A stretch of 64,000 nt of DNA, from NCBI GenBank assembly GCA_963840855.1, contig CAWJBB010000069.1, forward strand, positions 1 to 64,000, in the 5' to 3' direction. Every line of letters begins with the position of its first letter. Position 1 is the first letter of the stretch. Shown in pieces: positions 35,316 through 57,758 of the stretch. The stretch is from an uncultured delta proteobacterium (GTDB lineage Bacteria > Desulfobacterota > Binatia > UBA9968). The translations under genes and the position numbers were made by a program. Below the pieces are notes generated by a model, which worked only from the letters and a program-made list of their open reading frames with translations, did not search any database and was not told where the DNA came from.

Positions 35316-37997
35316 TTACGCGTGGGCTTCGGCCCAGTTGGCGCCGCTGTGTACTTCCACGGCCAAGCCGCAGCGAAGATCGACGGCTTGGGTCATTTCC
35401 TTCTCGATCAACGCGCGCGCTTGAGCGAGCTTGTCCGCAGGCACCTCGAAAACCAGCTCGTCGTGGACCGTTAGGAGCATTTTGGCGACCGGCTCTTTGC
35501 GCAACGCGGCGTCGACGTCGATCATCGCCTTTTTGAGAATGTCGGCGGCGCTTCCCTGGATCGGCGCATTGAGCGCCATGCGCTCGCCCAGTGCGCGCAG
35601 ACGAAAATTAGATGACTGCAACTCCGGGACATAGCGGCGCCGGCCGAACATGGTCGTGGTGAATCCGTCGACCTTTGCTTTCTCCACCTGGGCGGCGAGA
35701 AATTCTTTCACTTTCGGAAATTGCCCATAATAGGCATCGACGAAGCTGGCCGCTTCGTCCATTTCAACGCCGAGCCGCTGCGAGACCCCGTAAGTCGACA
35801 TGCCATAAGCGATGCCATAGGAAAACTGTTTGACCTGATTGCGCATCTCCGAAGTCACGTCTTTTAAAGGGACGCCGTAGACCTTGGCGGCGATGGTCGC
35901 ATGGAAGTCATGTCCTTGGGCGAAGGCCTGGCAAAAGGTCTCATCCCCGGAGAGATGCGCCAGCACTCGTAGCTCGATCTGCGAATAGTCCGCCGAAAGC
36001 AGCAGGTGCCCGGCCGCCGCGATGAAAGCGCGGCGAATTTGCCGTCCCAGTTCGCCGCGAATGGGAATGTTTTGCAGGTTGGGCGCGGTCGATGACAAGC
36101 GCCCGGTGGCGGCCGTGGTCTGCTCGTAAGTGGTGTGAATGCGCCGTGTCTTGGGATCGATGAGGCCAAGCAGCATCTCGCTAAAACCGTTCTTGAGCTT
36201 CGAGACCTCGCGGTATTCGAGCAACGACGCGACGATCGGATGGCGGCCGGCGAGCTTCTCCAACTCTGCCGCGTCTGTGGAGTAGCCGGTTTTGATTTTT
36301 CGCGTTTTGGGCAACGACAATTTTTCAAAGAGAATGCGCTGCAGCTGGACGTTGGAGTTCACGTTGAATTCCTCGCCTGCGACCTGCTGAATCGTTTGCT
36401 CCAGGCTTGTCATTTTTTGGCCGAAGTCAGAGTTCAGCTGATCGAGATAGTCGCGGTCGACAAGAATGCCGGTGTGCTCCATACGCGCGAGCACGGGGAT
36501 CAAAGGAAACTCCAGGGTAGTCGCAAGCTCCCAGACGCCTTGGGCGCGGAGTTGTTCTTCCACCACCGGCGCCACGGCGCGGATCGCCACAGCTTCCCGG
36601 CACACGCTCTGCTTCTCGTCGGTGGCAAATGAGAGCGTGCCTTGCTCTCCTGATTGCGGCTCGTTCTTCTCTGCATCGAGGGTGACGCCGAGGTGGCGAT
36701 TGACGATGTCGCGCAGTTGGTACCCTGACGAAGAACCGGGTTCGAGGAGATAGGCGGCGATCTTGGTATCACAACGGAGGCCGTAAATTTCGCCGCCGGC
36801 GCTTAGGATAGAGCGGAACAGTGCCTTGGCGTCATGTGCAGCTTTTTGCCGGTTAGGGTCTTTGAGACAACCGGCAAACCGATCCAGCGAGTCGGCGAAA
36901 GGCAAAAAGCGCGCTTCGCCGGCTCGGTCGCTCAGGGCGAGCCAGTCCTCATTCCACGCCAGCGCCACGACTTCGTCCGGATGCAGGTCGGCCTCGGCGG
37001 TGAATTCGGTCATCGAGTTTATTTCGAGCGCAGCCGACACCGCAACGTCGGCGCCATGAAATTTGAGATCCTTCAGCCGGTCATGCAGGGTGCGAAATTC
37101 AAGCGATAGAAAAAGCTTGCGCACCGCCTCCTCGTCCCATGCCTCCAGGCGAAGGTTTGCCGGGTCGAGGTCGAGCCGCACATCGTCAAGCAGGTGGCCG
37201 AGCTCTTTGTTGATCCGAACCTGATCTGCGTGTTTCTTAATGGCATCGCGCAGTTTCGGCGTTAGCTCGTCGGCATGAGCGATCACCTGCTCGATGTCGC
37301 CGTATTTGTTGATCAGCTGAGCGGCGGTTTTGTCGCCTACGCCGGGAACGCCGGGCAAATTGTCCGAAGCTTCGCCTTTAAGTGCGACGAAGTCGATCCA
37401 CTTTTCCGGCGCGACGCCGTAGCGCTCCAGCACCGTCGGAGCATTGTAACGGATCACGTCGGAAATACCGCGGCGCGTCATGATGACCGACACGCCGTCG
37501 CGGACCAGTTGTAGAATATCGCGGTCGCCAGTAACGATCATCACCTCACAACCTTCTTCTCTGGCGTGCTTGGTCAGAGTTGCAAGCAGATCGTCGGCTT
37601 CGTAGCCTTCCAGCTCGACCATGGGAATCCGCAAGCTCTCGAGTACTTCGCGGATCAAAGGCAACTGCTGTTTAAACAAGTCCGGGGTCGCCGCTCGTCC
37701 GGCCTTGTATTCGGCGTAACGGTCGAGGCGAAATTGCGGCGCACCCCTGTCGAAACAAACGACCACGCCCTGCGGCCGCTCGTCGGCGAGAAGCTTGATC
37801 AACATCGCGGTGAAACCGTAAACCGCGTTAGTCACTTGCCCCGAAGACGTGACGAGGGTGTCAGGAAGGGCAAAAAAAGCGCGGTAAGCCAACGAGTGGC
37901 CGTCGAGCAACAGCAGCTTATGTGCGTCTGCCTTGGCCGGCGCCGCCAGCTTGCGCTTAGACTTTTCTTCAGGCTGCTTCTTGGTTCTCTCGCTCAT
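35316..37997 (-). CDS. polA: DNA polymerase I
   Basis: 5'-3' exonuclease (LDGHSLAYRAF, YEADD, TGDRD); TGRLSS, PNLQNIP, DYSQIELR, NAPIQGSAAD and VHDE motifs. Confidence 0.97.
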   Translation of the reverse strand: MSERTKKQPEEKSKRKLAAPAKADAHKLLLLDGHSLAYRAFFALPDTLVTSSGQVTNAVYGFTAMLIKLLADERPQGVVVCFDRGAPQFRLDRYAEYKAGRAATPDLFKQQLPLIREVLESLRIPMVELEGYEADDLLATLTKHAREEGCEVMIVTGDRDILQLVRDGVSVIMTRRGISDVIRYNAPTVLERYGVAPEKWIDFVALKGEASDNLPGVPGVGDKTAAQLINKYGDIEQVIAHADELTPKLRDAIKKHADQVRINKELGHLLDDVRLDLDPANLRLEAWDEEAVRKLFLSLEFRTLHDRLKDLKFHGADVAVSAALEINSMTEFTAEADLHPDEVVALAWNEDWLALSDRAGEARFLPFADSLDRFAGCLKDPNRQKAAHDAKALFRSILSAGGEIYGLRCDTKIAAYLLEPGSSSGYQLRDIVNRHLGVTLDAEKNEPQSGEQGTLSFATDEKQSVCREAVAIRAVAPVVEEQLRAQGVWELATTLEFPLIPVLARMEHTGILVDRDYLDQLNSDFGQKMTSLEQTIQQVAGEEFNVNSNVQLQRILFEKLSLPKTRKIKTGYSTDAAELEKLAGRHPIVASLLEYREVSKLKNGFSEMLLGLIDPKTRRIHTTYEQTTAATGRLSSTAPNLQNIPIRGELGRQIRRAFIAAAGHLLLSADYSQIELRVLAHLSGDETFCQAFAQGHDFHATIAAKVYGVPLKDVTSEMRNQVKQFSYGIAYGMSTYGVSQRLGVEMDEAASFVDAYYGQFPKVKEFLAAQVEKAKVDGFTTTMFGRRRYVPELQSSNFRLRALGERMALNAPIQGSAADILKKAMIDVDAALRKEPVAKMLLTVHDELVFEVPADKLAQARALIEKEMTQAVDLRCGLAVEVHSGANWAEAHA

Positions 37998-38108
37998 CTA
38001 TTGTAGTGTAATCAGAGAATTTGTTGGCGGCAACCTCGCGCTGCAATCCGGGTAGCGGCTGTGCAGGATCCTATTCGTAGTTGCCGCTCATACGCAGACC
38101 AAAACTTG

Positions 38109-38756
38109 CTAGTAACTTTTGCCCTCGTACACCCAGCGATCTAAGTTATCGAAGTACTGCCGCCGTAGTACCAGACTCATCGCCACGGCGCGAGCGGCTC
38201 TCTCCTGCTTCTCTGCCGTCGTTGCGTATTTGACGAGAATCTCGAATGGGTAATTGCCGTGTTCTTCTTCGTCATCGTGGATTTTCTGGTAGGGCGCTGT
38301 TATCCATTTCGGCACGGTGCCGGCCTTTAAACTCTTGGCAATTAAATAGTCTGCCACACCCTCGCCCGCCATTGGAAACGCCGCGATTCTTTCAACCGTA
38401 TCGGTCAATCCTTCAAAAGCGTTAAACATCGCCATCTGCGCCGGCAGCGCTCGGTAATCGTGGGGCACGACGCCTTTAGCGCGCAGCGCTTCTTCGAGAA
38501 AAGTCGCGTGCTCGTATTCTTCGTGGGTCGCCTCCGCCAGGGTTTTCTTGACATCCAGTTCCGGCGTGCTTTTTAGCCAGCCGCCGAAGATCTCACCGGC
38601 GCGAATCTCGTTGAACAACCGGCTCTGCATAACCTTAATGCGCATCTCATCCGTGGTCAGCGGAATGTAGCTGTAGGCAGGGAGCTTGGCATCGAGAGAC
38701 GCGCAGAACTCGGCAACCTGTTTTTCTATCGTCTTGGCAAACTCTCGGCTGTCCAT
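38109..38756 (-). CDS. Ferritin-like diiron protein
   Basis: E...EEYEH...GE...DEEEH ligand pattern. Confidence 0.7.
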   Translation of the reverse strand: MDSREFAKTIEKQVAEFCASLDAKLPAYSYIPLTTDEMRIKVMQSRLFNEIRAGEIFGGWLKSTPELDVKKTLAEATHEEYEHATFLEEALRAKGVVPHDYRALPAQMAMFNAFEGLTDTVERIAAFPMAGEGVADYLIAKSLKAGTVPKWITAPYQKIHDDEEEHGNYPFEILVKYATTAEKQERAARAVAMSLVLRRQYFDNLDRWVYEGKSY

Positions 38757-38815
38757 ATCGACCTCTCTTGCCCGAAAGCACTTCCGTACTCGCTATCAAT
38801 AGAACGACCTCGGCG

Positions 38816-39727
38816 TCAAGTCTTTGCGTTTTGATCGTGGCGGTTAAAGGGACGTCTCTCATTTCTCAAAATTTTAGGTCGGGAAACGGCCAGGCCGACC
38901 CCACCCAGAATCACCACAGCCGATATCACGAGACGCAGACTAATCGCTTCGGATAAAACGAATACGCCGGCGAGCGCTGCTAGCACCGGCACCGCTAGCT
39001 GGACCGTCGCCGCTCGTGTCGCCGTCAGGCGAGGCAGTGCTGCGTACCACAGGACGTAGCCTACTCCCGATGTGATGGATCCCGATAGGGCCGCCCAGAG
39101 AAAACCCATAGGAGTTATAGTCAGTGTGGGTAGCCACAATAAGACGACACCGATAGCCAAGGGCACCGTGCGCAGAAAATTGTCCGTAGTGACGCCGACA
39201 GGATCACTGGCGCCGCGGCCTCTGAGAGAGTAAATGCCCCAGGCGATTCCGGCGGTGGCCATAAGAACCGATCCGAGGATGGAGGGGGCGGTGGTCCCGG
39301 GAGATACTAAATAAATCAGACCAGAAATGGCGATGAATAAGCCCAACCACTCCAAAATCTCCGGTCTTTCACCCGTAGAGAGGCCCACCGCGATCATTGT
39401 GATTTGCACCGATGCGAAGAGAATTAGCGCTCCGGTTCCCGCGCTCAAGCTTATGTAAGCGAAAGAAAAGGTTACGGCATATAGAAAAAGCATTGATGCA
39501 GAAATCCAACTGCCGGCGGATTTCCCGAAGGATTCCTTCCGGCGGAAAGCGGCGATTATCCATAGAGTGACCGCTCCGGTGATCAGCCTGACCGCTGTGT
39601 AGCTCGCCGGGTCGATGATCGGCCCAGCCAGTGCCAAACGGCAGAACACGGAATTGCCGGCAAAGGCGATGAGAGCGAGAACTGTAAGAGCCGCCGTGGC
39701 GGATCCTTTCGCAGATGATCTGCGCAT
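38816..39727 (-). CDS. DMT/EamA family transporter
   Basis: About ten hydrophobic helices; AFAGNSVFCR, YAVTFSFAY and GYVLWY motifs. Confidence 0.88.
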   Translation of the reverse strand: MRRSSAKGSATAALTVLALIAFAGNSVFCRLALAGPIIDPASYTAVRLITGAVTLWIIAAFRRKESFGKSAGSWISASMLFLYAVTFSFAYISLSAGTGALILFASVQITMIAVGLSTGERPEILEWLGLFIAISGLIYLVSPGTTAPSILGSVLMATAGIAWGIYSLRGRGASDPVGVTTDNFLRTVPLAIGVVLLWLPTLTITPMGFLWAALSGSITSGVGYVLWYAALPRLTATRAATVQLAVPVLAALAGVFVLSEAISLRLVISAVVILGGVGLAVSRPKILRNERRPFNRHDQNAKT

Positions 39728-39741
39728 CCCGTTTACATCGA

Positions 39742-40569
39742 TCAGCTCGACAACTGTTGACCGTTGGTGGCTCTTGAGCGCGAGGGTTTGCGGGCGAAGA
39801 AATTGACTCCTTGAACGAAAAGGTCTCTGGACAACTTGGCTTTAGCAGAAGTGCCTTCATAACAGTCGAAACGCTCCACAATCTCACCGTCTGTCAAACC
39901 AACGTCGGCAGTGATCCCATAAAGCTCTGCCTCCGGCAGAGCGCCGCCAATTCAGGCCGCCCAGAGATCGACGTCGCTTCGTGCCGTCAGCGAAAGTTCT
40001 CTTTGAACGACGACATCCGCGAGATACAAGCGTCCTCCGGGACGCAGCACCCTATAGACCTCGCGAAAGGCGCGATCTTTGTCCGGCGAGAGATTGAGCA
40101 CGCCGTTGGAGATAATGACATCCACACTCTCAGTCTCCACCGGCAACTCTTCGGCCATGCCCCGGCGCACCTCAATGCTTTGCCACAAACCAGCTTTTAA
40201 CGCACCGCGCTTGGCCAACTCAAGCATAGAAGGAGTCATATCCACTCCCATCGCGTGTCCCGACGGGCTGGCGCGGCGCGCGGCCAGCAAAAGATCCATG
40301 CCCGCGCCGCAGCCGATATCCAGCACTATCTCCCCTGGTCCGATGGGACCGATGCGATGGGGATTGCCGACGCCGGCAAAAGATGCGGTGGATTCCGCCG
40401 GAATTGTCGCCAACTCGTCCGGATCGTACCGGAGCATGCGGCAAGCATACTCGGGTCCCCGATGAAAATGAAAGTTTCCGTTGGGTTGCCGCGCTACCCG
40501 ATCGTATTCCGCGCGGACCAATTCCCGCAATTTATCGACATTGAACCCTACCGGACATATCGCCGCCAT
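39742..40569 (-). CDS. ArsM-like SAM-dependent methyltransferase, probable selenoprotein (TGA at 39952..39954 read as Sec)
   Basis: VLDIGCGAGMD, ISNGVLNL and RVLRPGGRL motifs; LWAA(TGA)IGGAL is followed by 69 open codons ending ...NFFARKP...LSS*. GGAG RBS before ATG 40569. Confidence 0.85.
39924..39942 (-). promoter_or_regulatory. Candidate bacterial SECIS hairpin
   Basis: mRNA reads UGA-AUUGGCGGC-GCUCUGCC-GGA-GGCAGAGC: a perfect 8-bp stem whose G-led loop starts 18 nt after the UGA. Confidence 0.75.
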
Positions 40570-40606
40570 AGTGATTCTCCCTGGCGCGATGGCTCGTTGC
40601 GCCAAC

Positions 40607-41167
40607 TCATGCTTTATCCAGCTGCACGGAGACCGTCACTGGTTTTGCAATACTATTGAACACCGGTGAGTATTTTTGGGCCATCCGGATAAGTTCCTCT
40701 TTCTGAGTTTCAGAGACATCTGCCTCGATCTTGAAATATAGACGGATATTCTGATATCCCACAGGAACCTCTTCCGATATTCCTAAAAAACCACGGAGAT
40801 CGAGATCGCCCTCATACCTGGATTCCAGTCCTTTTATAGCGATTCCCCGAGCAGCGGCATGGGCGACGAGACTTGTCGTCAGACAACCAGAGAGCGCAAC
40901 GAGAAGATACTCTACGGGATTCGCCCCCAGGTTTTTGCCGCATAGAACAGGCGGTTCGTCTATTTCAAAGACCAATGGGTCCCGCGAGTTGTCTTCCTTG
41001 AGAGCGCCGTAGAAATCTTTAACTGTCGCGCGATTGTAGGTTCCGTCGATCCACCTATTCGTTGCCCGAAATTTGAATTGAGCAACCTCTGGATTCCCCT
41101 TGATTACCTCCATGGTGCTGAACAACTGATCGACATTCACTCCGTTGATAATCTTTTCCTTTGCCAT
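40607..41167 (-). CDS. OsmC/Ohr family protein
   Basis: DEPPVL, GANPVEYLLVALSGC and DLDLRGFLG motifs; the second Cys position reads SPV. Confidence 0.85.
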   Translation of the reverse strand: MAKEKIINGVNVDQLFSTMEVIKGNPEVAQFKFRATNRWIDGTYNRATVKDFYGALKEDNSRDPLVFEIDEPPVLCGKNLGANPVEYLLVALSGCLTTSLVAHAAARGIAIKGLESRYEGDLDLRGFLGISEEVPVGYQNIRLYFKIEADVSETQKEELIRMAQKYSPVFNSIAKPVTVSVQLDKA

Positions 41168-41207
41168 TCTCTTACCCTCCTTTGCATTGTTGTTTTCTGC
41201 TTGCTAG

Positions 41208-41861
41208 TTAAACTGCTCCATCCTCAGCTAGATTGGGTATCGCCTTCTGAGAAGGGTAGTCGTTACCCAAAGAGAGTCGCCGCGGTTTCCGGAGCATCGG
41301 AAAAAGGGGAGGTGAAGATCCGACCTGAATCGTGTCGACTAACTCGAACCCGTGCCGCTGATAGAGCGGAACACTTTTTGGGCTCGACGATTCGAGATAG
41401 GCGAGTTTGCCCTCGCCATCGCACCGTTCAAGCGCATGTTTCAACAACGCCGAGCCATAGCCATTGCCTTGTTTGGCCGGGTCTACCCCGATCATGGGCA
41501 AATACCAGTGAGGTTCGGACGGATGGGAGCTATCCATCTGCTCGATAAAGGCAAAGATCTCTTGTTGTTTCTCCTCTGGAATCGTGCGTTGAAGCAACGC
41601 GGTCAGAGCGTTTTCGTCAGGGTGTACGTCCGGCGGAAGCCAAAGTGCCGCGCCTGAGTATCCATCAATCTGGTAAGCGCTCTTGTATTCAAACGCCTTG
41701 CCAGCGAATGCCCGTACGAAGCTCGGTAAATGGAGCAAATATTGATGCGGGTCGGGATAAAACCAGCGGGCCACGGGATCCGCACTAAACGCGAGCACGA
41801 CCGTGCCGACGGCTTGATCCGCATTTGATGGCGTTACGGTTTTGATTATTGGCTTGATCAT
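41208..41861 (-). CDS. GNAT family N-acetyltransferase
   Basis: AFSADP, HWYL, GVDPAKQGNGYGSALL, YLESS and LYQRHGF motifs. Confidence 0.9.
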   Translation of the reverse strand: MIKPIIKTVTPSNADQAVGTVVLAFSADPVARWFYPDPHQYLLHLPSFVRAFAGKAFEYKSAYQIDGYSGAALWLPPDVHPDENALTALLQRTIPEEKQQEIFAFIEQMDSSHPSEPHWYLPMIGVDPAKQGNGYGSALLKHALERCDGEGKLAYLESSSPKSVPLYQRHGFELVDTIQVGSSPPLFPMLRKPRRLSLGNDYPSQKAIPNLAEDGAV

Positions 41862-42039
41862 AGTCGGTTCTCCTTCATAGACATTTTGTTTTATTCGGCT
41901 CGAAGCTCCAGGCGAAAACGATCACGCACGCTTTGTCGTCCAAATGACTTCGCGCTGGTTCTATGAGTCACCATAAGAAATAGCCACATAGAAAACTACG
42001 AGGGCGAAGAGTAAAAATCCTTCCATGACGACATTCTCT

Positions 42040-43422
42040 TCAAGGTTTGATGTTCTGATTCAAATGAAAAACATTTTCGGGATCGTAGCGTCTCTTGATC
42101 TCCACCAGGCGATCATAGTTGGATCCGTAAGCCGCGGCGACACGGTCGCCCTCCTCCGCGGTCATAAAGTTTACGTAAGCGCCGGCCGACGCATAAGGCG
42201 CACTGGCGTTAAAAAACTCGCGCGCCCACCCAATACACTTCTGGTCATCCTTCGCGTCATCCCATCGCCCGTGGACGTTCAAGACGAACTTCGCGTCCCG
42301 GTGGCCGTAGGCCATTGCGTTGGGAGCGATGCGATTCGGCGCGCCGGCACACAGTCCTATGAAAATCTCGCACTGCGGGGAGGGGAGCTTCCCGGCAAAC
42401 TCGATAACGGAGTTCAGCGCTCCGTCGGCAAGCTCGGTGAAGTTATGGGACTTCCAGTAGTTTCTTGCGCCGGGTGTCAGCAACGGGTCAAATGCTTTTT
42501 GCCAGGCAACATAGGGCTGGGCGCCGATATGCTCACCGTGAGCATTGCCGAAAGCGCGCACAGGGGCGATGAGTTTCTCTGCTTCCGCGACGGCGCCAGA
42601 GTAAAAGATAGGCAGCACAACAACTTCCTTGCCGTGTATATTTTCCGGAAGAAAAGGCAATGGCGGCGCCTTGCGCAGCACAACCCAGATATTGAGCTCC
42701 TCGGGAGCCGAATTTACAAATTGACGATACTTGGTAAGTATCTGTTTTGCCTGGTTGAACGGAAAAACGATCAGGCCGGCGACTATTTCGGGACCCACGG
42801 GGAAAAGCTGGAATTCGAACTGAGTGACGACGCCAAAGTTTCCCCCGCCACCGCGAATCGCCCAGAAAAGATCTGCATTTTCGGTTTCACTTACTCGTAT
42901 TTTCTTGCCTTCGGCGGTGACCAGGTCGACAGAGATGAGATTGTCGATGGTCATGCCGTATTTGCGAGTAAGCCAGCCGAAGCCGCCGCCCAAGGTTAAG
43001 CCCGCAATGCCTGTCGTGGAATTGATCCCTACCGGCGTGGCCAGACCGTGCGCCTGAGTCGCTTCATCCAAGTTCGCGAGGGTCGCCCCGGGCTCGACAT
43101 AGGCGCGCCTTTTCCTGGAATCCACGCGAACGTTCTTCATTCTTGAAAAATCGATCGTAACACCATTGTCGCATAGGGCATTTCCGGCGATGTTATGCCC
43201 GGCGCCGCGAATTGAAATTTCAAGCCCGTTTTCTCGCGCAAACCTGATCACCGGCGGGACATCGTCAGCCTGCGTGCATTGCACGATAACCGCGGGCCGC
43301 CGATCGATCATGGCGTTCCAAATCTGGCGCGCTTCCTCGTAATCGGGCTGACCGGGAACTAAAATGTTCCCTTTGATAGTGCCTCTGAGCTCTTCTCTCG
43401 CTCTCGACGTTTGAGTTGTCAT
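42040..43422 (-). CDS. FAD-binding oxidoreductase (berberine-bridge-enzyme-like)
   Basis: IRGAGHN, GLTLGGG, RGGGGNFG, YVNF and YDPENVFHLNQNI motifs; paralog of 23193..24552. Confidence 0.92.
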   Translation of the reverse strand: MTTQTSRAREELRGTIKGNILVPGQPDYEEARQIWNAMIDRRPAVIVQCTQADDVPPVIRFARENGLEISIRGAGHNIAGNALCDNGVTIDFSRMKNVRVDSRKRRAYVEPGATLANLDEATQAHGLATPVGINSTTGIAGLTLGGGFGWLTRKYGMTIDNLISVDLVTAEGKKIRVSETENADLFWAIRGGGGNFGVVTQFEFQLFPVGPEIVAGLIVFPFNQAKQILTKYRQFVNSAPEELNIWVVLRKAPPLPFLPENIHGKEVVVLPIFYSGAVAEAEKLIAPVRAFGNAHGEHIGAQPYVAWQKAFDPLLTPGARNYWKSHNFTELADGALNSVIEFAGKLPSPQCEIFIGLCAGAPNRIAPNAMAYGHRDAKFVLNVHGRWDDAKDDQKCIGWAREFFNASAPYASAGAYVNFMTAEEGDRVAAAYGSNYDRLVEIKRRYDPENVFHLNQNIKP

Positions 43423-43455
43423 AATTACTTTGCCTCCAACCTTAAACTTGGCGCG

Positions 43456-44367
43456 CTAACAGAACGCCGGCGCCATTTCCTCTATTTGCTTTCTTCCTTC
43501 CGGCTTGATCTCCTCGACGGTTGCGAGAAAGTTCGGATGCGTCATGCCGGTGCCGAGATAGGTCCAGCGCATTCCTTTCAGGACGGCGTTGGTCATCTCC
43601 TCGCGCTCGCTCTTGGAGAGCTTTCTCCCGGTAGCTTGAACGAAGCTTTCCGCTTCGAACTCCGCTTGCTGCTTGATGCCGTTATCGATGAACATGCCGA
43701 TTTCGGCGTACTCTTCAAAGGCCTGATCGATCTCTTTTGGAGTAGAACCCTTCACGACCGACTCGACGATCAAAGTATCGAGCTTGGTATGCTGCGACTC
43801 TTCCAGCCAGTGGTGCTTGAGCAAGCTTTTGAACTGGGGGTCGAGGTTCTGATTATCCCTGACGCCTTCGATGTAGTGCCTCAGGGTGATCCATTCGATA
43901 TGGAGAATCGCAATTCCGACACCCAAAGGACTGTGCGAGAGAACAAAGCGGCTTATGTCTTCGGCGGGACCGATGAAGTCGCATTTGCTGCCGAACCCGC
44001 CCTCGAATTCTTGCCGGAAGCGCTTGAACAGATGAATGTGCTTTGCCTCTTCGCCGGCGAACTGAAGCAGAGCCCGCGCGCGGTAGTCATCTCCAGAGAG
44101 ATGAAGCCGCGCATGATCCACTACGTAGGGGAGAATAAATTCTTCCACCAGACCGAACATGGCGAGATATTCATGGCCGCGAATCTGATTCAAAGTGAGC
44201 TGTTCCTCGGCAGTGAGAAACGAAAGCTGTTTCACCTGCGCCAAGGATTCCGGCATGAACGGTTTGGTGAAGTCGAGCTGCTTGTCGCCGCCAATGATAT
44301 CGTCCACTTTCCAGCCGATTCGTTCAGAGGCGGCGAGCGCCGATTGGTATGAATAACTGTGTTGCAT
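43456..44367 (-). CDS. Ferritin-like diiron protein (AurF/oxygenase-like)
   Basis: VEEF, EEAKH, HIEW and HHWLEESQH ligand pattern; AAGGAGG RBS. Confidence 0.7.
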   Translation of the reverse strand: MQHSYSYQSALAASERIGWKVDDIIGGDKQLDFTKPFMPESLAQVKQLSFLTAEEQLTLNQIRGHEYLAMFGLVEEFILPYVVDHARLHLSGDDYRARALLQFAGEEAKHIHLFKRFRQEFEGGFGSKCDFIGPAEDISRFVLSHSPLGVGIAILHIEWITLRHYIEGVRDNQNLDPQFKSLLKHHWLEESQHTKLDTLIVESVVKGSTPKEIDQAFEEYAEIGMFIDNGIKQQAEFEAESFVQATGRKLSKSEREEMTNAVLKGMRWTYLGTGMTHPNFLATVEEIKPEGRKQIEEMAPAFC

Positions 44368-44411
44368 TTTCCTTTCCTCCTTCTCAAGTGACGTTGCTGG
44401 AAATGCCTTAG

Positions 44412-44427
44412 AGCAGCCCGCGTGCCA
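44412..44427 (-). promoter_or_regulatory. Sigma54 (-24/-12) promoter
   Basis: TGGCAC-GCGGG-CTGCT, about 45 nt upstream of ATG 44367. Confidence 0.75.
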
Positions 44428-44495
44428 TCTTGTCTACGTCGGATTTATTGAGGAAAACCATTGACTTAGCGAAATCCACCATTATCGGAACAGTT

Positions 44496-44551
44496 GTGAG
44501 ATTTCACGAGTTACGAGATCTCACGTTCATCCCCTGTGAGATCTCGTAACT
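44496..44551. promoter_or_regulatory. Putative enhancer/operator
   Basis: Perfect 16-bp inverted repeat AGTTACGAGATCTCAC-N11-GTGAGATCTCGTAACT (44509..44551), plus GTGAGATTTCAC at 44496. Confidence 0.6.
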
Positions 44552-44669
44552 GAAGACGAAGGAGTTAACCGGGGAAGGTGTCAATCGAATGTCGCCCAAT
44601 GTCAGGACAAAATCTGTGTGAAGGATTATTCCCCTTTCATAACAAGACAAAATTCGGAGGCGTAAGCGA

Positions 44670-46028
44670 ATGCCGACCTTTAAATCCGGGGCCAAAAAAC
44701 CCAAAAATATCGTCGCAGGACTCTGGCTAGTGTGGGTTGCCTTACTGGTTGCGCAGTCATCTTACGCTGACGACAAACTCACTGACATCTACACGTTTCC
44801 GGACATCCCCATCAAAGAATTTCACAACAAGTTGCTTCCCGATAGTGTCGGCGACCATCGCAAAATTCTTCTGGGGTCGGTCGGTAGCGATCTAGGGCGC
44901 GGGCCGAAAGATCCGCGCGATGAGTTTTGGATGGTGACCGACCGCGGACCTAATGGTCAGATCAAAGTGGATGGGACGAGCCGCCGTACTTTTTTGGTGC
45001 CGGAATTCAATCCGACGATCCTCAGAGTCAAAACCCAAGGCAAAGAGGTTGGTATTTTGGAAGCCCTACCCATCGTCGGCCAATCGGGGAAGGCCGTGAC
45101 GGGACTGCCGAATTTGAAAGGGATGAACGAGACGCCATACGACTACTCCGCTCAGGAATTGCTAAATTTCAATCCTAACGGTCTTGATACTGAAGGGCTC
45201 GTCCGCACGACCGCTGGTGACTTCTGGATCGTCGAAGAGTATGGGCCTTCACTTGTCCACGTGGATCGAACCGGCAAGGTGCTGAAGCGCTACATCCCCG
45301 AGGGGCTCAAGATCGAGGATACGGACTATCCCGTCGCCAACGTGTTGCCGGCGATCTATGGGAAGACAAAGATAAACCGAGGCTTCGAGGGGCTGGCGCT
45401 AAGCAACGATGAGAAGACTCTCTATATCGTGCTCCAAAGCCCGCTGCTCAATCCTGACGGAAAGACCGGAAACGCTTCGCGCAACACCCGGGTGCTTGTG
45501 TTCGACATCGCCGCCGAGAAAGTCACAGCCGAGTATACCTATCGATTCGACGCGTCGAGCGAATTCGACTCTAATCCCAGGAACAGCCCTGATGAGATGA
45601 AACTCTCGGGAGTAGCCTTTCTCAACCCAACCACACTTCTCGTGCTTGAGCGGACGGACCGCGTGGCGAAACTTTACAGCGTGGACATGAGTAAAGCGAC
45701 GAACATTCTTAACACTCGATGGGACGACGCGAAGACGGCTCCCGCTCTTGAAGCGCTCCACGATCCGGCGAGTGCGCAAGTGCGCGTTCTACCCAAGTCG
45801 CTCGTGCTCGATTTGAGTTCTCTATCCGGCATGCCCGAGAAGATCGAAGGAATCGCAGTGCTCGACCGGCATACCATCGCCGTCGCCAACGACAACGACT
45901 TCGACAGCGAAGAAAGTAAAGATGATGCTGAAGGCAACGGTATCGGAAAGGCAAAGAAATCTCAGATTTTCGTCATTTCTCTAACCAAACCCCTGCCGCT
46001 CCCTCTAGACAGCGTCGCTGCCCGCTAA
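44670..46028 (+). CDS. Esterase-like activity of phytase family secreted protein
   Basis: Signal peptide; TDRGPN, GLDTEG, EEYGPS, NRGFEGLA, LQSPL and NDNDF motifs. Confidence 0.88.
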   Translation: MPTFKSGAKKPKNIVAGLWLVWVALLVAQSSYADDKLTDIYTFPDIPIKEFHNKLLPDSVGDHRKILLGSVGSDLGRGPKDPRDEFWMVTDRGPNGQIKVDGTSRRTFLVPEFNPTILRVKTQGKEVGILEALPIVGQSGKAVTGLPNLKGMNETPYDYSAQELLNFNPNGLDTEGLVRTTAGDFWIVEEYGPSLVHVDRTGKVLKRYIPEGLKIEDTDYPVANVLPAIYGKTKINRGFEGLALSNDEKTLYIVLQSPLLNPDGKTGNASRNTRVLVFDIAAEKVTAEYTYRFDASSEFDSNPRNSPDEMKLSGVAFLNPTTLLVLERTDRVAKLYSVDMSKATNILNTRWDDAKTAPALEALHDPASAQVRVLPKSLVLDLSSLSGMPEKIEGIAVLDRHTIAVANDNDFDSEESKDDAEGNGIGKAKKSQIFVISLTKPLPLPLDSVAAR

Positions 46029-49086: not shown

Positions 49087-50523
49087 CTATTCTGGCGGTT
49101 CGGCAGAGAGTTCCGGTTGGTCACGGCGGCGCAGGCGTTTATTTAGGGCTTGCCGCGATACGCCGAGGAGCCCGGCGGCCACGCCCTGATTGCCGTCCGC
49201 TCGGCTCAGCGCCTCAGCGATCAACGCGTCCTCGGCCTCTTTGAGCGTGGGGAGCCGATCAGGAGACCACGCGACCAGCCCGGTGGACGGCTCCTCCGGC
49301 TGCTGGGCCGCGGCGAGGTCCGACTTGCCGGCAATGGCTTCTTTGAAGCTTTGCAGCGACAGGATCGTCCCCTCGTGGCGGGCAACCGCGTCGAAGATCA
49401 ACCCTTCCAACTCGCGCACGTTCCCTGGGAAACTATAGGTCTTGAGCAACTGACAGAGCGCCAGCGGCACCGTCGGCATAGGTTTGCCGAGGACGCGAGC
49501 CGCCTTGTCAACAAAGTGATTGATCAATAAAGAAAGGTCGCCCCTACGGGCACGCAACGGCGGCAGATGGAGATGGTGGGTCCGCAGTCGGTAATAGACG
49601 TCTTTGCGAAACGTCCCTGCGCTAACGCTCCGCGTGATATCACAATTCGTGGCGCAGACGATCCGGGCACAGCTCTGGCGTGGCCGATCCGCGCCGACAG
49701 GATAAAAGGTGCCATCCTGGAGGAGACGCAGCAACTTGACCTGCGAAGAGACTGAAAGGTCGCCGATCTCGTCGAGAAACAGGGTGCCCTCTGCTGTGCT
49801 CGTCATCAAGCCGTCCCGCGCCTGATCGGCGCCGGTAAACGCACCCCTCGTATGACCGAACAAGGTATCCGAGAACAGAGTATCGTCCAGGCCCGCCACA
49901 TTGACGGTGACAAGCTCTCCCGGGCGTGCCGAGAGCCGATGAAGCGCTCGAGCAACCAGTTCCTTGCCCGTGCCAGTTTCACCGGTAATCAAGACCGGCT
50001 GCGGTGACGGCGAAACAGCCTCGATATAGCGAAAGATCGCAAACATTTCCTTGCTCTGCGTGATGATTTCGGCGAAGGCTTCGCGCTGATGCGGCGTATC
50101 CGTCAGGAGACGCTCTTTCAGGGACAACACCTCCGCACGCAACATGCGGATCTCTAATGCGCGCTTAACAGACGATACCAGGCGGTTTTCTTCCACCGGC
50201 TTGACCAGATAGTCGACGGCGCCATCTTGCATACACTGCACCGCGGTCTGGAGATCGTTCGTCGCCGTCATAACAATGACCGGAATATCCGGATGATCTT
50301 CGGTAACTTGCTCCAGGAGCGCATGCCCGGATAGATGGGGCATCGTGAGGTCGAGCAGCAACGCCCCGATGTCCCGTTCCGCCAGTAGCGGCATTACGGA
50401 GCGACTATCGTCGACAGTGAGAACGTGCACCAGGCCCGAAGAGCGCAGCACGATGCTCGCGCTGTGCAGCACCGGGGTATCGTCATCCACCAACAGAACC
50501 GGCATATTGGAAACGTCTTTCAT
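49087..50523 (-). CDS. Sigma54-dependent response regulator (NtrC family)
   Basis: Receiver LLVDDD; GETGTGKE, GAFTGA, LFLDEIG and FPGNVREL motifs; C-terminal Fis-type HTH. Confidence 0.95.
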   Translation of the reverse strand: MKDVSNMPVLLVDDDTPVLHSASIVLRSSGLVHVLTVDDSRSVMPLLAERDIGALLLDLTMPHLSGHALLEQVTEDHPDIPVIVMTATNDLQTAVQCMQDGAVDYLVKPVEENRLVSSVKRALEIRMLRAEVLSLKERLLTDTPHQREAFAEIITQSKEMFAIFRYIEAVSPSPQPVLITGETGTGKELVARALHRLSARPGELVTVNVAGLDDTLFSDTLFGHTRGAFTGADQARDGLMTSTAEGTLFLDEIGDLSVSSQVKLLRLLQDGTFYPVGADRPRQSCARIVCATNCDITRSVSAGTFRKDVYYRLRTHHLHLPPLRARRGDLSLLINHFVDKAARVLGKPMPTVPLALCQLLKTYSFPGNVRELEGLIFDAVARHEGTILSLQSFKEAIAGKSDLAAAQQPEEPSTGLVAWSPDRLPTLKEAEDALIAEALSRADGNQGVAAGLLGVSRQALNKRLRRRDQPELSAEPPE

Positions 50524-52640
50524 AGGATCGGCTTCTCCTCTCTAGCAGGCGACAAGTTGGGGAGACTCGACTTTTCCTCGCTAGGGCAGGGAAAGGCGAC
50601 CCGGGCGCGCGTGCCTTTGCCCGGCTCGGAATCAAAAGTGAGTCGGCCACCGTGCAAGCGGACGAGAGAAGAGGTGATGGCCAAACCAAGCCCTGTCCCT
50701 CCGCTGTCTTGCTTGGTGGTGAAAAAAGGATCGCACAAGCGTGCCAGATGCTCCGGCGGAATGCCGACACCTTCGTCGCGCACCTCGAGTACCACATAGC
50801 CCTTGCTGGCGTCGAAGGATGTCGTCACGGTGATTCCGTGTTTCCTGTCAGGCAACGCCTCCACGGCGTTGGTCAGAAGATTGACGACGATTTGCTCCAC
50901 GTGCTGCGCATCTCCCGGCAAGGACGGCAATCCCTGCGCAAGACCGACGTGCATGCGATCCGTGCGGTTCTTGATCAGATGGGCGAGCAAGCGTAGCGCG
51001 CGCTCGACCGCTTCGTTCAACTGTAAGGCGGTATGAGCCCCTCGTCCGCGCGGTCGCGAAAAATGCTTGAGGTCGTCAACGATGCGCTCGATCCGTCGCG
51101 CGCCGTCGTGTACGTCTCGAACCAGCGTGGGTACGGTGCGGCGCATTTCGCTATAAGGTAATCCGCCAAGTGAAAATGCCCCGTGTTCCTGCGCATAGTC
51201 ATCCAAGTTGCCCATAGCGTCATCCCACGCTTGCGCCAGTACCCTTGAGTTCATCAACACGACCTGGTTCGGATTGTTGATTTCGTGCGCCACGCTCGAG
51301 ACCAGCGTGCCCAAGGCGGTCATCTTATTGGCCTGGATGAGCTGCAGCTCCTGCTGGCGGGTGGTTTCCTGCAACTGTTTTTGGGCGGTCAGGTCACGGA
51401 TAATGCCGGTCACGTAGTTGTCGTGCGCCGTCGACCAGGTTGAGAGTGAAATCTCCAGCGGGAACTCACTGCCGTCTTTGCGGACACCGGAGAATTCCAC
51501 CGTAGTGCCAACCAAGCGAGAAGAGCCGGTGGTAGACCATTGCCTGAAGCGCTCAAGGTGAGCCAAATGGTAGCGGGTGGGTATCAGACGCGTGAAAGGA
51601 GTGCCCAGAATTTCCTCCGCCGTGTAGCCAAAGATCGCCTCTGCCATGGCGTTCCAAGAGACGATGTTTCCCGAGCTATCGGCGGAAATGATGGCGTCAT
51701 TGGCTGATTCTGTGATGGCACGGAAGCGTTCTTCGCTGGCGCGCAAGGCGGCGACAGCCTGCTGGCGCTCCCCCATCTCTCTCTCTAGGTCGGTATTGGC
51801 CCGGCGCAAGTCCCGGGCATTCGAGCGCAGTCGCGCAAACTGGTAAAACAAATAGCCAAGCAGGATGACGGCTACGAGGTACAGCAGCACTCGAAACAGT
51901 TGCGCGCGCGCTTCGACACTGTTGGCATACTGGAGCACGGCATTCTGGAGGGCATCTGCATGGGCCGTCGTGGGGGCGGCGATGATCTGGCGCAAGAGGG
52001 TATCGACTCGAGGAAGCATCTCCACAATCAGCCAACCATGTGCGATTAGCGTGTCGAGACCTCGCTGCATGCGCGGGTTAGCTGACAAACGACTGAGCGC
52101 TGCCTCTGCCTCTTTGCCCGCGCCGAGTTCCGACGTGTGTATGAAGCGCACCAGTACGTGCGAGACGGCAGCGATTTCTGCCGCCACGTTTTGCTCCGCT
52201 TTGAACTGTTTGCCGATGTTCTGCCCGGTATGTGTGAAATACCTCAAAGAGTTTTGCAGCAGGGCGTTGTCTGATTTGAAGTACTCGACCAGAGTTAGCT
52301 TCTGTTGCAACGCGGCCGTCAAGGCCTCCGCGTGCTTGCCCATTTCCTTTGGCGCCGCGCCCGATACGGTCGTAATCTCGGCGCGCAGCGCATCCGCTAT
52401 CTGGGAGAGCTGCTGACCGATCCGCGGCAACGAATCATAATTGGAAAGTAGCCCGGCGCGCGCAAGCAATACGTCGCGGGTCAGCTCCGTGTCATGCAGT
52501 TGCAAATTCTGCAATGCCTCTTGCATGCGTGCCCGCCGAGCGAGGTCTGGGTTCCTGCTCTGGATGAGCAAGTAGGTAAGCAGCAGCAGGAGGCCCGCCA
52601 CGATCGACAAAGGCTTCCACAATCTAACTATACTTGTCAC
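50520..52640 (-). CDS. Sensor histidine kinase, all-helical (DAHL-like) periplasmic domain + PAS
   Basis: Two TMs; LVEYFKSDNALLQNSLRYF; PAS (WNAMAEAIFGY); AHEINNP, FFTTK and GTGLGL motifs. Confidence 0.9.
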   Translation of the reverse strand: MTSIVRLWKPLSIVAGLLLLLTYLLIQSRNPDLARRARMQEALQNLQLHDTELTRDVLLARAGLLSNYDSLPRIGQQLSQIADALRAEITTVSGAAPKEMGKHAEALTAALQQKLTLVEYFKSDNALLQNSLRYFTHTGQNIGKQFKAEQNVAAEIAAVSHVLVRFIHTSELGAGKEAEAALSRLSANPRMQRGLDTLIAHGWLIVEMLPRVDTLLRQIIAAPTTAHADALQNAVLQYANSVEARAQLFRVLLYLVAVILLGYLFYQFARLRSNARDLRRANTDLEREMGERQQAVAALRASEERFRAITESANDAIISADSSGNIVSWNAMAEAIFGYTAEEILGTPFTRLIPTRYHLAHLERFRQWSTTGSSRLVGTTVEFSGVRKDGSEFPLEISLSTWSTAHDNYVTGIIRDLTAQKQLQETTRQQELQLIQANKMTALGTLVSSVAHEINNPNQVVLMNSRVLAQAWDDAMGNLDDYAQEHGAFSLGGLPYSEMRRTVPTLVRDVHDGARRIERIVDDLKHFSRPRGRGAHTALQLNEAVERALRLLAHLIKNRTDRMHVGLAQGLPSLPGDAQHVEQIVVNLLTNAVEALPDRKHGITVTTSFDASKGYVVLEVRDEGVGIPPEHLARLCDPFFTTKQDSGGTGLGLAITSSLVRLHGGRLTFDSEPGKGTRARVAFPCPSEEKSSLPNLSPAREEKPIL

Positions 52641-53791
52641 TGTCTCTTCTTCCCTGGCGCTCCGACAGGCCGTCCTTGATATTCTCCGGTTAAGGTATGC
52701 AAAAACTGTATGATCAACCTAATCTCCTCTGCGGTCAGCGTCCTTCCCAACTGAACTCTGATCATCGTCCTCACGGCGTCCTCAAGCGTCTGCGCGCGTC
52801 CATCGTGAAAGTATGGGCCGGTGGCCGCCACATTGCGCAGGCTCGGCACGCGGAACACCTCCCGGTCGCGCGGCGCCTTGGTCACGGCATAGCGCCCCAA
52901 GTCGACGGGGGCGCCGGGGATTTCCGCGCCACTGGCCTCCGCAAAAACGCCGAATTTCTGGTATATGTTGCCGCCGATATTCATTCCCTGATGGCAGGCC
53001 ACGCAGCCGTAGGATTTGAACAGTCCGTAGCCCTGCTGCTCCGCCTCCGTCAGCGCGTGCCGCTCACCGCGCAGATAGCGATCGAAACGAGCATTGGGCG
53101 TCAACAAGGACCGCTCGAAGGTAGCTAGAGCGGCCAACGCGTTGGCTCGCGTCAGGCCTTCGGGGTAAGCGTTGTTGAACCGGGCAACGTAGTCCGCATC
53201 AGCGCGCAACTTAGTGAGGAGCTCCGGCCAAGTCGTGTTCATCAATCTCGGACTCAACAGAACGATCTCGGCTTGGGCCTCTAAGGTTTGGGCGATGCCG
53301 TCCCAATTAAAAGAGGCATTAAATCCCACATTAAAAATTGTCGGGGTATTGCGAGCGGGCGACGAATCGTTGGCAGAGCTGGCACTGCGGCGGCCGTCCA
53401 TGCCGCCTTGGTCTAACGGATGGCAAGCAGCGCAGGATTTCGTATTGTCGCGAGACAGTCGCACATCGTTAAACAACCGTTCTCCGAGTGCCACCCGTTT
53501 CGGATCAAGATCCACGGAAAGCGGAAGGGGCGTAATGGGCTCTTGTGGCCCCGCAGCGGACGAGCTTGAAACCAGCACGCCGATGCGCCAGACCTTCGCC
53601 GGCTGCTGCGCCGCAACCGGCAAGCTAAGCGCGAAGAGCATGGCGCCTAGACCAGAGATCAGAACTCGGATATCGGAGATCGGTTTAACCACAGAGGAAC
53701 AGAGGGCACAGAGAAAGCGCTCCGTGCCTCGGCGGCGAATTTTTACCCTCTGATTTCTGACTGCTGCCCTCTGATCTCCGACCTCTGTCAT
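52637..53791 (-). CDS. Di-heme cytochrome c peroxidase/MauG-like protein (start uncertain)
   Basis: CAACH and CVACH heme motifs; LGERLFNDVRLS, RNTPTIFN, FRVPSLRNV and PYFHDG. Confidence 0.9.
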   Translation of the reverse strand: MTEVGDQRAAVRNQRVKIRRRGTERFLCALCSSVVKPISDIRVLISGLGAMLFALSLPVAAQQPAKVWRIGVLVSSSSAAGPQEPITPLPLSVDLDPKRVALGERLFNDVRLSRDNTKSCAACHPLDQGGMDGRRSASSANDSSPARNTPTIFNVGFNASFNWDGIAQTLEAQAEIVLLSPRLMNTTWPELLTKLRADADYVARFNNAYPEGLTRANALAALATFERSLLTPNARFDRYLRGERHALTEAEQQGYGLFKSYGCVACHQGMNIGGNIYQKFGVFAEASGAEIPGAPVDLGRYAVTKAPRDREVFRVPSLRNVAATGPYFHDGRAQTLEDAVRTMIRVQLGRTLTAEEIRLIIQFLHTLTGEYQGRPVGAPGKKRQ

Positions 53792-54776: not shown

Positions 54777-54951
54777 ATTTTTCTTTGCCTCTTCCCACTC
54801 GTCACTCGACACATGACACTCGCCCCCCTCACCTTATTGCGCACCTCATTTCGAGCGTTATGTATCACGCGGATGGAGATAAAGGAAAGTGTGATTTACA
54901 CGGCGAAAGACAACAGGTATTCGTCGAGTGGAAAAACCAGATTTTTAGCCT

Positions 54952-55021
54952 GAGATTGAACTGAACGACGCAAAGGACAAATCTCACAGGATTGAGTAGA
55001 TGGAGAATTCAATTCAATCCT
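54952..55021. repeat. 70-bp palindromic intergenic element, copy 1
   Basis: GATTGAACTGAA...CAAATCTCACAGGATT...TTCAATTCAATCCT. Confidence 0.85.
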
Positions 55022-55046
55022 GGCAGCGCAGCTTTGTTTTCTTCCA

Positions 55047-56074: not shown

Positions 56075-56116
56075 TGTTTTTCCCTCAATCCGAAATTCGA
56101 AATCCGCAATCCGAAA

Positions 56117-56162
56117 TTACTTAATGACTTTATCCGCTCTCGCCAGCACATTCGGTGGAATC
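56117..56162 (-). pseudogene. C-terminal stub of an ABC SBP gene
   Basis: IPPNVLARADKVIK*. Confidence 0.75.
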
Positions 56163-57751: not shown

Positions 57752-57758
57752 ATGCGGC

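Follow-up and report, generated by a model that had tools for sequence, protein, structure and literature searches.

We describe a gene cluster in a 64,000-nucleotide stretch of DNA from an uncultured bacterium of the class Binatia (lineage UBA9968; positions 1-64000 of contig CAWJBB010000069.1, hereafter C69), the whole of which we call the window. The cluster is modular: a constant head unit, comprising a sigma-54 promoter, its upstream boxes and the gene for a candidate diiron oxygenase (diFe1), is followed by six optional, shuffled accessory genes. These encode an EncM-like flavoenzyme, a GNAT N-acetyltransferase, a one-cysteine OsmC-like protein, an ArsM-like methyltransferase that is a candidate selenocysteine (Sec) protein, a putative exporter of the EamA family and a second putative diiron protein (diFe2). 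Our first but tentative choice is that the cluster is an inducible, sigma-54-controlled unit that would oxidise, conjugate and export a small molecule, for detoxification or catabolism; we infer every function proposed here from family resemblance. Each of the component families is already known. What is new is the regulon and the combination of genes, which an earlier note on this DNA had not recognised as a described pathway; our literature search likewise found no description of the combination.

The window belongs to a 7.1 Mb assembly of 93 contigs (94% complete, 8% contamination). The features of the cluster are as follows.

44498..44551, minus strand: upstream activator site with three boxes, RY-GAGATCTC-RY
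44412..44427, minus strand: sigma-54 promoter, TGGCAC-N5-CTGCT
43456..44367, minus strand: diFe1, 303 aa; weak match to AurF (PF11583), 21.8 bits (cut-off 29.6)
42040..43422, minus strand: EncM-like FAD-linked oxygenase/oxidase, 460 aa; FAD_binding_4 and BBE domains
41208..41861, minus strand: GNAT N-acetyltransferase, 217 aa; Pfam Acetyltransf_1/7/10
40607..41167, minus strand: one-cysteine OsmC-like protein, 186 aa; Pfam OsmC
39742..40569, minus strand: ArsM-like S-adenosylmethionine (SAM) methyltransferase, selenoprotein candidate; TGA at 39952-39954 read as Sec
39924..39942, minus strand: SECIS-like hairpin, GCUCUGCC-GGA-GGCAGAGC, 10 nt 3' of the UGA
38816..39727, minus strand: EamA/DMT-family transporter, putative exporter, 303 aa; Pfam EamA
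38109..38756, minus strand: diFe2, second putative diiron protein, 215 aa; weak AurF match, 20 bits

The seven open reading frames (ORFs) run in one direction and span 38109-44367 with gaps of 33, 178, 40, 37, 14 and 59 nt, which agrees with the earlier account of seven co-directional genes set 14-59 nt apart except for one gap of 178 nt. At the 3' end, polA follows in the same direction after 111 nt. Family matches of the proteins are from Pfam and NCBIfam profiles. Related loci were surveyed with one genome per species: 343 stretches encode a diFe1 relative, and the best 80 were kept, each with up to 10 kb of flank. For tests of upstream regions, the close set comprised the window and loci L019-L054, whose diFe1 is at least 73% identical, with 36 upstream regions of sufficient length; the distant set comprised 42 loci (diFe1 of 57-64% identity, plus L055 and L056).

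Sigma-54 promoters carry GG at -24 and GC at -12 with fixed spacing, of the type TGGCAC-N5-TTGCW. The promoter of the cluster, TGGCACgcgggCTGCT, lies at 44427-44412, 60 nt 5' of the diFe1 ATG, and from the usual distance of ~12 nt after the GC, transcription is expected to start near 44401. The corresponding sigma factor gene, rpoN, is present in the genome on contig C68 (TIGR02395, 436.5 bits against a cut-off of 277). Across the close set, the pattern TGG[CT]A-N7-[TC]GC is found between -52 and -77 in 32 of the 36 upstream regions; of the 42 loci in the distant set, just two, L085 and L086, show it. Further upstream of diFe1 lie three boxes, at 44538-44545, 44515-44522 and 44498-44505 (-178, -155 and -138 from the ATG), the third of which is degenerate and reads GAAATCTC on the coding strand. 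A 16-nt inverted repeat at 44509-44551, AGTTACGAGATCTCAC-N11-GTGAGATCTCGTAACT, consists of the first two boxes with their flanking bases. Of the 88 copies of the core GAGATCTC in the assembly (7.1 Mb), the only two that stand no more than 60 nt apart are those upstream of diFe1.

The same arrangement recurs in the close relatives, where the three-box pattern is found between -130 and -198. At least one box, with no more than one mismatch, is present in 35 of the 36 upstream regions, which together hold 79 boxes; these are spaced by 17 nt (22 times) or 22-23 nt (18 times), and the last box stands 76-80 or 94-97 nt from the -24 element. Perfect boxes are concentrated at this site, with 50 in the 13,550 nt of the windows from -260 to -90 versus 23 in the remaining 1,140,605 nt of the related loci. 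The promoter and the palindromic site, both of which the earlier note had pointed out, therefore exceed chance and are conserved across close relatives. We met no published description of the RY-GAGATCTC-RY box, though the literature was not searched for that sequence.

In many of these loci the regulator is encoded next door. A gene for a protein of ~650 aa with GAF, PAS, Sigma54_activat AAA+ and HTH_8 domains (cluster c1) lies directly upstream of diFe1, in the same direction, in 30 of the 80 loci, namely 29 of the 38 close ones and L086. Because promoter, boxes and adjacent activator recur together in the close loci, we regard activator, boxes, promoter and diFe1 as one conserved unit. The pairing of this GAF-PAS-AAA+-HTH enhancer-binding family with the promoter is strongly supported, as is the position of diFe1 as the first and sole constant gene of the unit. 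The activator scores below the NCBIfam equivalogs (NifA, 374 versus 529 bits; NorR, 368 versus 476), with only its AAA+/HTH part matched, and its sensor region has only weak similarity to the FixL PAS domain (E 0.0086), which gives no clue to the signal.

The genome studied here departs from this layout. Its activator orthologue (73% identity) is found outside the window, 25 kb upstream on the same strand of the contig (C69 ~69,445-71,399, minus strand; 5445-7399 in L099). The displaced gene has kept its usual upstream neighbours, an EamA gene and E1 alpha/beta genes. Between it and the cluster are a phytase-like gene, a sigma-54 regulator/kinase pair, a MauG-type peroxidase gene and several genes for solute-binding proteins. 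Specifically, three consecutive minus-strand genes at 49090-53791 of the window encode a response regulator of the sigma-54 type (478 aa), a histidine kinase with DAHL-PAS architecture (706 aa) and a di-haem enzyme of the cytochrome c peroxidase/MauG kind, and five ABC_sub_bind (PF04392) ORFs occupy 53791-61453 of the window and 4224-5201 of L099. Two of the latter, at 53791-54432 (214 aa) and 55595-56074 (160 aa), look like pieces of one split gene.

The constant gene of the unit, diFe1, is a candidate ferritin-like diiron-carboxylate oxygenase with the shape of AurF and CmlI. Its structure model has a pLDDT of 97.1, and structural alignment of the model (VIA-align) places CmlI (5hyh, Z 20.0, 268 residues aligned, rmsd 3.7) and AurF (2jcd, Z 19.5) about 4 units above R2lox and RNR-R2 (Z about 16). 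Of 56 diverse relatives, 49-52 retain the candidate ligands E75, E107/H110, E158 and H186/E190/H193, and all 56 retain H164; the third histidine is a hallmark of AurF. A profile search against solved chains gave weak R2lox/RNR-R2 matches only (best E 0.0022). In a library of representative proteins, diFe1 has 1329 relatives at E<=0.001, of which 150 representatives were listed, and two of its relatives, P0184 (39.9 bits) and P0131 (29.7 bits), do pass the Pfam AurF threshold. Among longer forms of 532-2000 aa that might represent fusions, one protein was found, P0391, and it has no added Pfam domain. The genome also encodes a diFe1 paralogue (40% identical; C75:15994-16923, or 6997-7923 in L100), which adjoins a YHS-domain gene and lies ~3.2 kb from a gene for a metallo-beta-lactamase-rhodanese-YgaP fusion.

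What follows diFe1 differs from genome to genome. The full complement of six accessory genes is absent from every one of the 80 related loci, the maximum being five. Among the close loci, 36 have 700 nt or more of downstream sequence, and in these we find the BBE-type flavoenzyme in 14, GNAT in 11, the methyltransferase in 11, the OsmC-like protein in 10, diFe2 in 7, EamA in 6 and none of them in 7. In the subset of 21 close loci with at least 6 kb downstream, the same counts are 7, 6, 7, 6, 5, 5 and 6. Of 72 loci compared for the gene immediately after diFe1, 20 have the OsmC-like gene there, 10 the flavoenzyme, 3 GNAT and 1 the methyltransferase; the other 38 have a different gene or none. 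The order of the accessory genes also differs among loci, and genes for DsrE-like proteins, SnoaL-like proteins and flavoproteins of the acyl-CoA-dehydrogenase fold join them. The smallest units consist of the activator and diFe1, either alone or with a single flavoenzyme of the BBE type or the acyl-CoA-dehydrogenase fold.

Certain adjacencies nevertheless recur: diFe1-flavoenzyme, diFe1-OsmC, GNAT-methyltransferase, methyltransferase-EamA (as in the window, and also in L021, L022, L030 and L033) and EamA-diFe2. Of the two gene pairs that had been singled out for a conservation test, the diiron and FAD oxidase pair thus recurs, whereas the OsmC and methyltransferase pair is not a conserved adjacency in related loci. 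Subsets of the genes do occur together after diFe1 elsewhere, the complete set in no related locus. The earlier description as a co-regulated cluster for redox chemistry, tailoring and export probably holds, with a gene content that is fluid; the further proposal that the cluster is built around a selenoenzyme is not supported, as the anchor is diFe1 with its activator and promoter, and the methyltransferase is present in only 11 of the 36 close loci.

The methyltransferase is a selenoprotein candidate for which there is good evidence, and on this point the earlier note is borne out. The Sec TGA at 39952-39954 is codon 206 from the ATG at 40569, and reading through it raises the score for NF008823 from 190.7 to 212.4 bits (cut-off 263). 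A TGA stands in frame at this codon in the window and in all 13 related copies (12 loci), and the peptide (I/V)(G/A)GALP(E/V)(A/V)EL is conserved 3' of it. The TGA is followed by a SECIS-like hairpin, within a 66-nt stretch with a folding energy of -26.8 kcal/mol (z -2.0). All 14 sequences retain its 8-bp stem (8/8 pairs in 10, one mismatch in 4), with a GGA or GGT loop; changes in the stem are one-sided only, with no two-sided compensation, and the region is also coding (GALPEAEL). A second, C-terminal Sec (SS-TGA-TCG-ATG-TAA) was considered and rejected: the terminal TGA at 39742-39744 is a stop, because the 13 related tails vary and seven end in TAA or TAG without a TGA.

Three genes of the Sec-insertion machinery, selA, selB and selD, are contiguous in this genome at C1:37592-42090. 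The selA product scores 616 bits and that of selD 382.6 bits; selD is itself a selenoprotein candidate because of its own in-frame TGA. Two adjacent pieces in different frames (207.6 and 193 bits) represent selB. Neither RF01852 (best score 43 bits, threshold 47) nor ARAGORN detected a tRNA-Sec, which is uninformative given an assembly that is 94% complete, with 39 tRNA genes. Of 151 class genomes sampled, 11 have diFe1 and about nine have TGA-bearing methyltransferase relatives, and the two are adjacent only here and in one other. In-frame-TGA relatives of 42-54% identity occur in 5 class genomes with no diFe1 match. Seven TGA relatives, from five other genomes and a second contig of G011, have none of the other six cluster genes alongside; genes for old-yellow-enzyme, SDR, ADH, nitronate monooxygenase and ECF sigma/ChrR-cupin proteins are their neighbours instead, as is typical of regions that deal with stress or electrophiles. 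In a Planctomycetota metagenome-assembled genome (L097 ~10992-12545), two tandem ArsM-like methyltransferase genes lie directly 3' of a diFe1 homologue, each with an in-frame TGA and a hairpin; if TGA is read as Sec, the pair merges into a single open frame. A search for literature on selenocysteine in Binatota found nothing relevant.

A methyltransferase of this kind could point to arsenic methylation and resistance, with the methyltransferase acting on arsenite and the GNAT and exporter on organoarsenicals. Its best NCBIfam matches are indeed arsenite methyltransferase families, and its best solved relatives are ArsM chains. The table of selenoproteins in a 2026 review (PMC13188914) includes NF008823, an arsenite methyltransferase with the motif UxxG, and going by that entry the cluster enzyme belongs to a known group of selenocysteine-containing, ArsM-like UxxG proteins and is of a kind already known. 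However, its 212.4 bits fall short of the family cut-off. Sec206, in a U-I-G-G context, aligns with the third Cys of the solved ArsM chains 5evj and 4kw7, whereas the Cys of their GCG(N/S) motif is replaced by Val67 and that of their SNC motif by Gly156. Both positions are Cys in the solved wild-type ArsM chains; in the 13 related copies the first is V or L and the second G or A. We take the ArsM cysteines at the positions of Val67, Gly156 and Sec206 to be those that hold As(III). Neither the cluster genes nor the 30 ORFs scanned next to the TGA relatives include a member of an ars family. We consider an arsenic function highly improbable.

The other accessory enzymes suggest oxidation and conjugation. 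The best solved relative of the flavoenzyme is EncM (6fye, 419 bits, E 2e-124, residues 15-460), a flavin-dependent oxygenase from the enterocin pathway with unusual flavin chemistry. Elsewhere in the window, a second FAD-linked BBE-type oxidase (23157-24377, plus strand) is 39% identical to the cluster flavoenzyme over 395 residues. The GNAT has puromycin N-acetyltransferase as its nearest solved chain (7k09, E 1.8e-19), and the transporter matches Pfam EamA over two stretches (82.8 bits).

We accept diFe2 as a putative diiron protein, without assigning a fold class. It is a helical protein with the motif E / ExxH / E / ExxH; over 26 sequences, E80, H83, E132, E163 and H166 do not vary and E55 is nearly invariant, although these sequences, bar one paralogue, are 84-94% identical to one another. 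Its model reaches a pLDDT of only 71.8, and the fold matches obtained with it are ambiguous: TenA (Z 17.2), CADD (14.9), the ferritin-like 3ez0 (14.8) and BesC/PqqC/HrmI (14.5). Foldseek returned no match at E<=0.001 with this model, a profile search against solved chains gave only E>=0.15, and the Atlas names for look-alikes are EncFtn-like/ferritin-like and DUF455. The earlier proposal of two diiron proteins in the cluster thus survives in a putative sense for each; homology between the two was considered and rejected (BLASTP E 0.34), and we treat them as unrelated. The diFe2 paralogue in this genome (58% identical; C41:112972-113619, or 6972-7616 in L101) is flanked by genes of the glyoxalase/VOC-fold and fumarylacetoacetate-hydrolase families, followed by a TPP enzyme, a setting that looks catabolic.

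It is also conceivable that these enzymes make a product rather than remove one. Here the cluster, once induced, would turn a primary metabolite into a small N-oxygenated product (such as a hydroxamate, a nitroso compound or an N-N chelator or signal) destined for export: its functional group would be built by the flavoenzyme and the two metallo-oxygenases, GNAT and methyltransferase would tailor it, and EamA would carry it out of the cell. The titles of the structure entries describe AurF/CmlI-shaped enzymes as N-oxygenases of antibiotic pathways, the diFe2 fold list holds the N-oxygenase HrmI as well as FlcD, BesC and HamA, and an exporter with two tailoring transferases suits a product pathway. 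The best NCBIfam matches of the flavoenzyme are bagremycin/ferroverdin oxygenases, far below their cut-offs (BagK/FevA1, 246.8 bits against 800). Several observations argue the other way. Neither the cluster nor any of the 80 related loci encodes a scaffold-forming or activating enzyme (NRPS, adenylase or lyase); close relatives differ in gene content, 7 of the 36 lacking any accessory gene; diFe1 and diFe2 are found together in just 7 of those 36; and the fold of diFe2 is ambiguous and comes from a model with a pLDDT of 72. We consider this biosynthetic role unlikely, while ranking it second.

A third alternative starts from the association of diFe1 with the OsmC-like protein, the widest-ranging link that we observe. 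An OsmC-like gene lies no more than 400 nt after diFe1 in 21 loci, whose record titles span Binatia, Acidobacteriota, Alphaproteobacteria and Thermodesulfobacteriota; it is the commonest immediate downstream neighbour (20 of 72 loci), and in distant loci it is the sole recurring accessory (11 of 36). The distant diFe1 genes stand beside genes for an ECF sigma factor and Ser/Thr kinase, an AraC-cupin regulator or an AAA_16-domain regulator. The OsmC-like protein of the cluster scores 67.2 bits for Pfam OsmC (cut-off 27.5) and matches the solved hypothetical protein 2opl over residues 2-185 (E 2.2e-91). OsmC/Ohr thiol peroxidases have two catalytic cysteines. In the present family Cys95 is invariant, and Ser167 is found in 14 of 14 sequences where OsmC 9wo1 has the Cys of C-P-V.

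On this basis, the core of the unit could be diFe1 together with the one-Cys OsmC-like protein, in a response to thiol/chalcogen or peroxide stress that acts on cysteine-bound or peroxidic species, with DsrE-like proteins and the Sec-methyltransferase as extra accessories for handling sulfur and selenium. The breadth of the association fits this idea, as does the one invariant Cys kept in both OsmC types. Two of the 150 library representatives, P0134 (522 aa) and P0165 (505 aa), read as diFe1-OsmC fusions; a DsrE-like gene (c24) adjoins or lies near diFe1 in 5 loci; the C75 paralogue of diFe1 has rhodanese-fusion and YHS-domain genes for neighbours; and Sec would be chemically fit for chalcogen chemistry. 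On the other hand, the two proteins are encoded by separate ORFs in 21 of 21 adjacent cases, with diFe1 always of 303 codons, and the fusions come from unverified metagenome gene calls that may reflect read-through, as diFe1 ends in TGA with OsmC in the same frame in five of the 21 loci. In the window the OsmC-like gene lies away from diFe1, and no known sulfur-oxidation gene is found in the cluster. A predicted diFe1/OsmC-like complex (score 0.00, mark 0.32) is evidence neither way. We judge a stress unit of this kind improbable and rank it third, ahead of arsenic methylation.

A bolder version of the association may be worth stating, though we give it little credence: diFe1 and the one-cysteine OsmC-like protein might form an unrecognised two-part enzyme that occurs across phyla, each time with its own regulator, so that the operon would be this core plus swappable modules. 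The diiron centre would act on, or be serviced by, the OsmC cysteine; for example, a cysteine-bound species might be oxidised, or the Cys protein might serve as a private reductant or peroxide shunt. The regulator would be a sigma-54 GAF-PAS activator, an ECF sigma factor with its kinase, or an AraC-type protein, and the modules would include the Sec-methyltransferase, which lacks the supposed arsenic-holding cysteines and hence might have a new substrate.

We return to the detoxification or catabolic unit, which we rank first. The reading as oxygenation and conjugation is preferred because diFe1 resembles CmlI and AurF, the flavoenzyme resembles EncM, the GNAT resembles a drug-inactivating acetyltransferase and the transporter is of the EamA family. 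We propose that the activator senses a small molecule, binds the boxes and opens the sigma-54 promoter, and that the transcript would run on through whichever accessory genes follow, this genome having the fullest set seen. The compound, probably amine-bearing or aromatic, would be oxidised by diFe1, the EncM-like flavoenzyme and diFe2, and capped by N-acetylation (GNAT) and by methylation (Sec-methyltransferase). The capped compound would then be expelled by EamA. The OsmC-like protein may work with the diiron enzyme or may clear peroxide by-products.

Expression of the cluster was considered with contigs from three soil metatranscriptome runs (X16, X17 and X18) that represent relatives of at least 88% identity. 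Most of the cluster is represented in these contigs. Three of its six junctions are bridged, namely diFe1-flavoenzyme (X17 record 24, X18 record 32), methyltransferase-EamA (X16 record 10, X18 record 27) and EamA-diFe2 (X18 record 25); as evidence of co-transcription this is weak, contigs being incapable of proving a single transcript. RNA depth in X17 and X18 is near zero 5' of the ATG, a value that we did not use, as contig depth cannot show where a transcript starts. A consensus scan found 0 sigma-70-like promoters in the cluster (mean of 3.8 in shuffles), a simple scan found 4 terminator-like sites (mean of 8.5 in shuffles), and no known RNA family was found within 37900-44800 at E<=1.

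Several points weigh against the preferred reading, some of them regulatory. The activator orthologue requires three reading frames within ~110 nt of its GAF region, which would be explained by a defective gene or by indel errors in the assembly; since selB is split there too, we rate the two explanations as equally likely. In L021, L028, L041 and L026, flavoenzyme or methyltransferase matches are broken across frames, which suggests indel errors in those assemblies and therefore calls for caution over frameshifts in this one. A second sigma-54 activator, the response regulator at 49090-50523 with its kinase, lies 4.7 kb upstream of the cluster and is a possible regulator. The 178-nt gap before GNAT could hold a second promoter, and it divides two recurrent modules, diFe1-flavoenzyme and GNAT-methyltransferase-EamA-diFe2; no clear shared motif was found in the gap when 4 loci were aligned, which speaks neither for nor against such a promoter. 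One RNA contig (X16 record 16, 44249-44553) spans promoter and boxes, and this may indicate DNA carry-over or read-through from upstream. Other points concern the proteins. Identity of diFe1 to AurF and CmlI is only 10-13%, its Pfam AurF score lies below the threshold (21.8 versus 29.6 bits), and the OsmC-like protein is without one of the two cysteines of the solved OsmC chain. Finally, the widespread link between diFe1 and OsmC is beyond a simple detoxification scheme.

Should the function prove to be ordinary detoxification, the value of these observations would lie mainly in annotation. The cluster nonetheless provides a clean regulatory unit (activator, three boxes, sigma-54 promoter and oxygenase) for Binatia-type bacteria, which are known mainly from metagenome assemblies. 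It also draws attention to an AurF-like diiron family with more than 1000 library relatives, whose surveyed loci lie outside antibiotic-type clusters and usually beside a regulator gene. An ArsM look-alike with Sec matters for how 'arsM' counts in soil metagenomes are read, as the enzyme presumably cannot bind arsenite in the manner of ArsM. The recurring link between oxygenase and OsmC is a concrete lead to new chemistry.

Comparison with known systems shows likenesses and differences. HamC and PvfB of the ham and pvf clusters, which serve diazeniumdiolate and signal biosynthesis, are AurF-like, and solved HamA is in the fold list of diFe2 (Z 14.1). Unlike those clusters, the present one has no NRPS-type enzyme, and diFe1 and diFe2 seldom co-occur (7 of 36 close loci). 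HamA is described in two reports as a mononuclear, haem-oxygenase-like iron enzyme that forms N-N bonds (PMC12522199, PMC5878181), whereas diFe2 has a two-ExxH motif. The flavoenzyme shares with EncM and other BBE-like oxidases the FAD_binding_4 and BBE domains and an aligned R-G-x-G-H stretch; unlike EncM, it has no polyketide synthase context and is paired with a diiron oxygenase. The OsmC-like protein has the same single-Cys pattern as 2opl, which is functionally uncharacterised, so that the match assigns no role. With the Sec-containing ArsM-like families (NF008823 and the fusions NF041537, NF041536 and NF047649), the methyltransferase has in common the SAM-methyltransferase fold and the Sec position, but it scores below every family cut-off and is a single domain with one Sec. 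Unlike ArsM-type proteins, it is without their two other Cys and, among the genes scanned, without an arsenic gene context.

AurF and CmlI are the best structural matches to diFe1, nearly full-length (268-277 residues aligned), and diFe1 has their conserved pattern of E, ExxH, E and HxxxExxH; the Atlas calls the clusters nearest to it 'aminobenzoate oxygenase family'. Unlike these two enzymes, diFe1 lies outside an antibiotic gene cluster and is probably under a dedicated sigma-54 activator, and in other phyla it accompanies ECF sigma/kinase, AraC-type or AAA_16-domain regulator genes. The activator, in turn, has the sensor-AAA+-HTH_8 domain order of the GAF-domain sigma-54 activators NorR, NifA and FhlA. 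It differs from them in that its family joins GAF and PAS sensors and reaches no equivalog cut-off. As with NorR, NifA and FhlA, there are multiple palindromic sites, here ~80-120 nt upstream of the -24/-12 promoter, and the regulator appears to be a dedicated one, apparently with a single target promoter.

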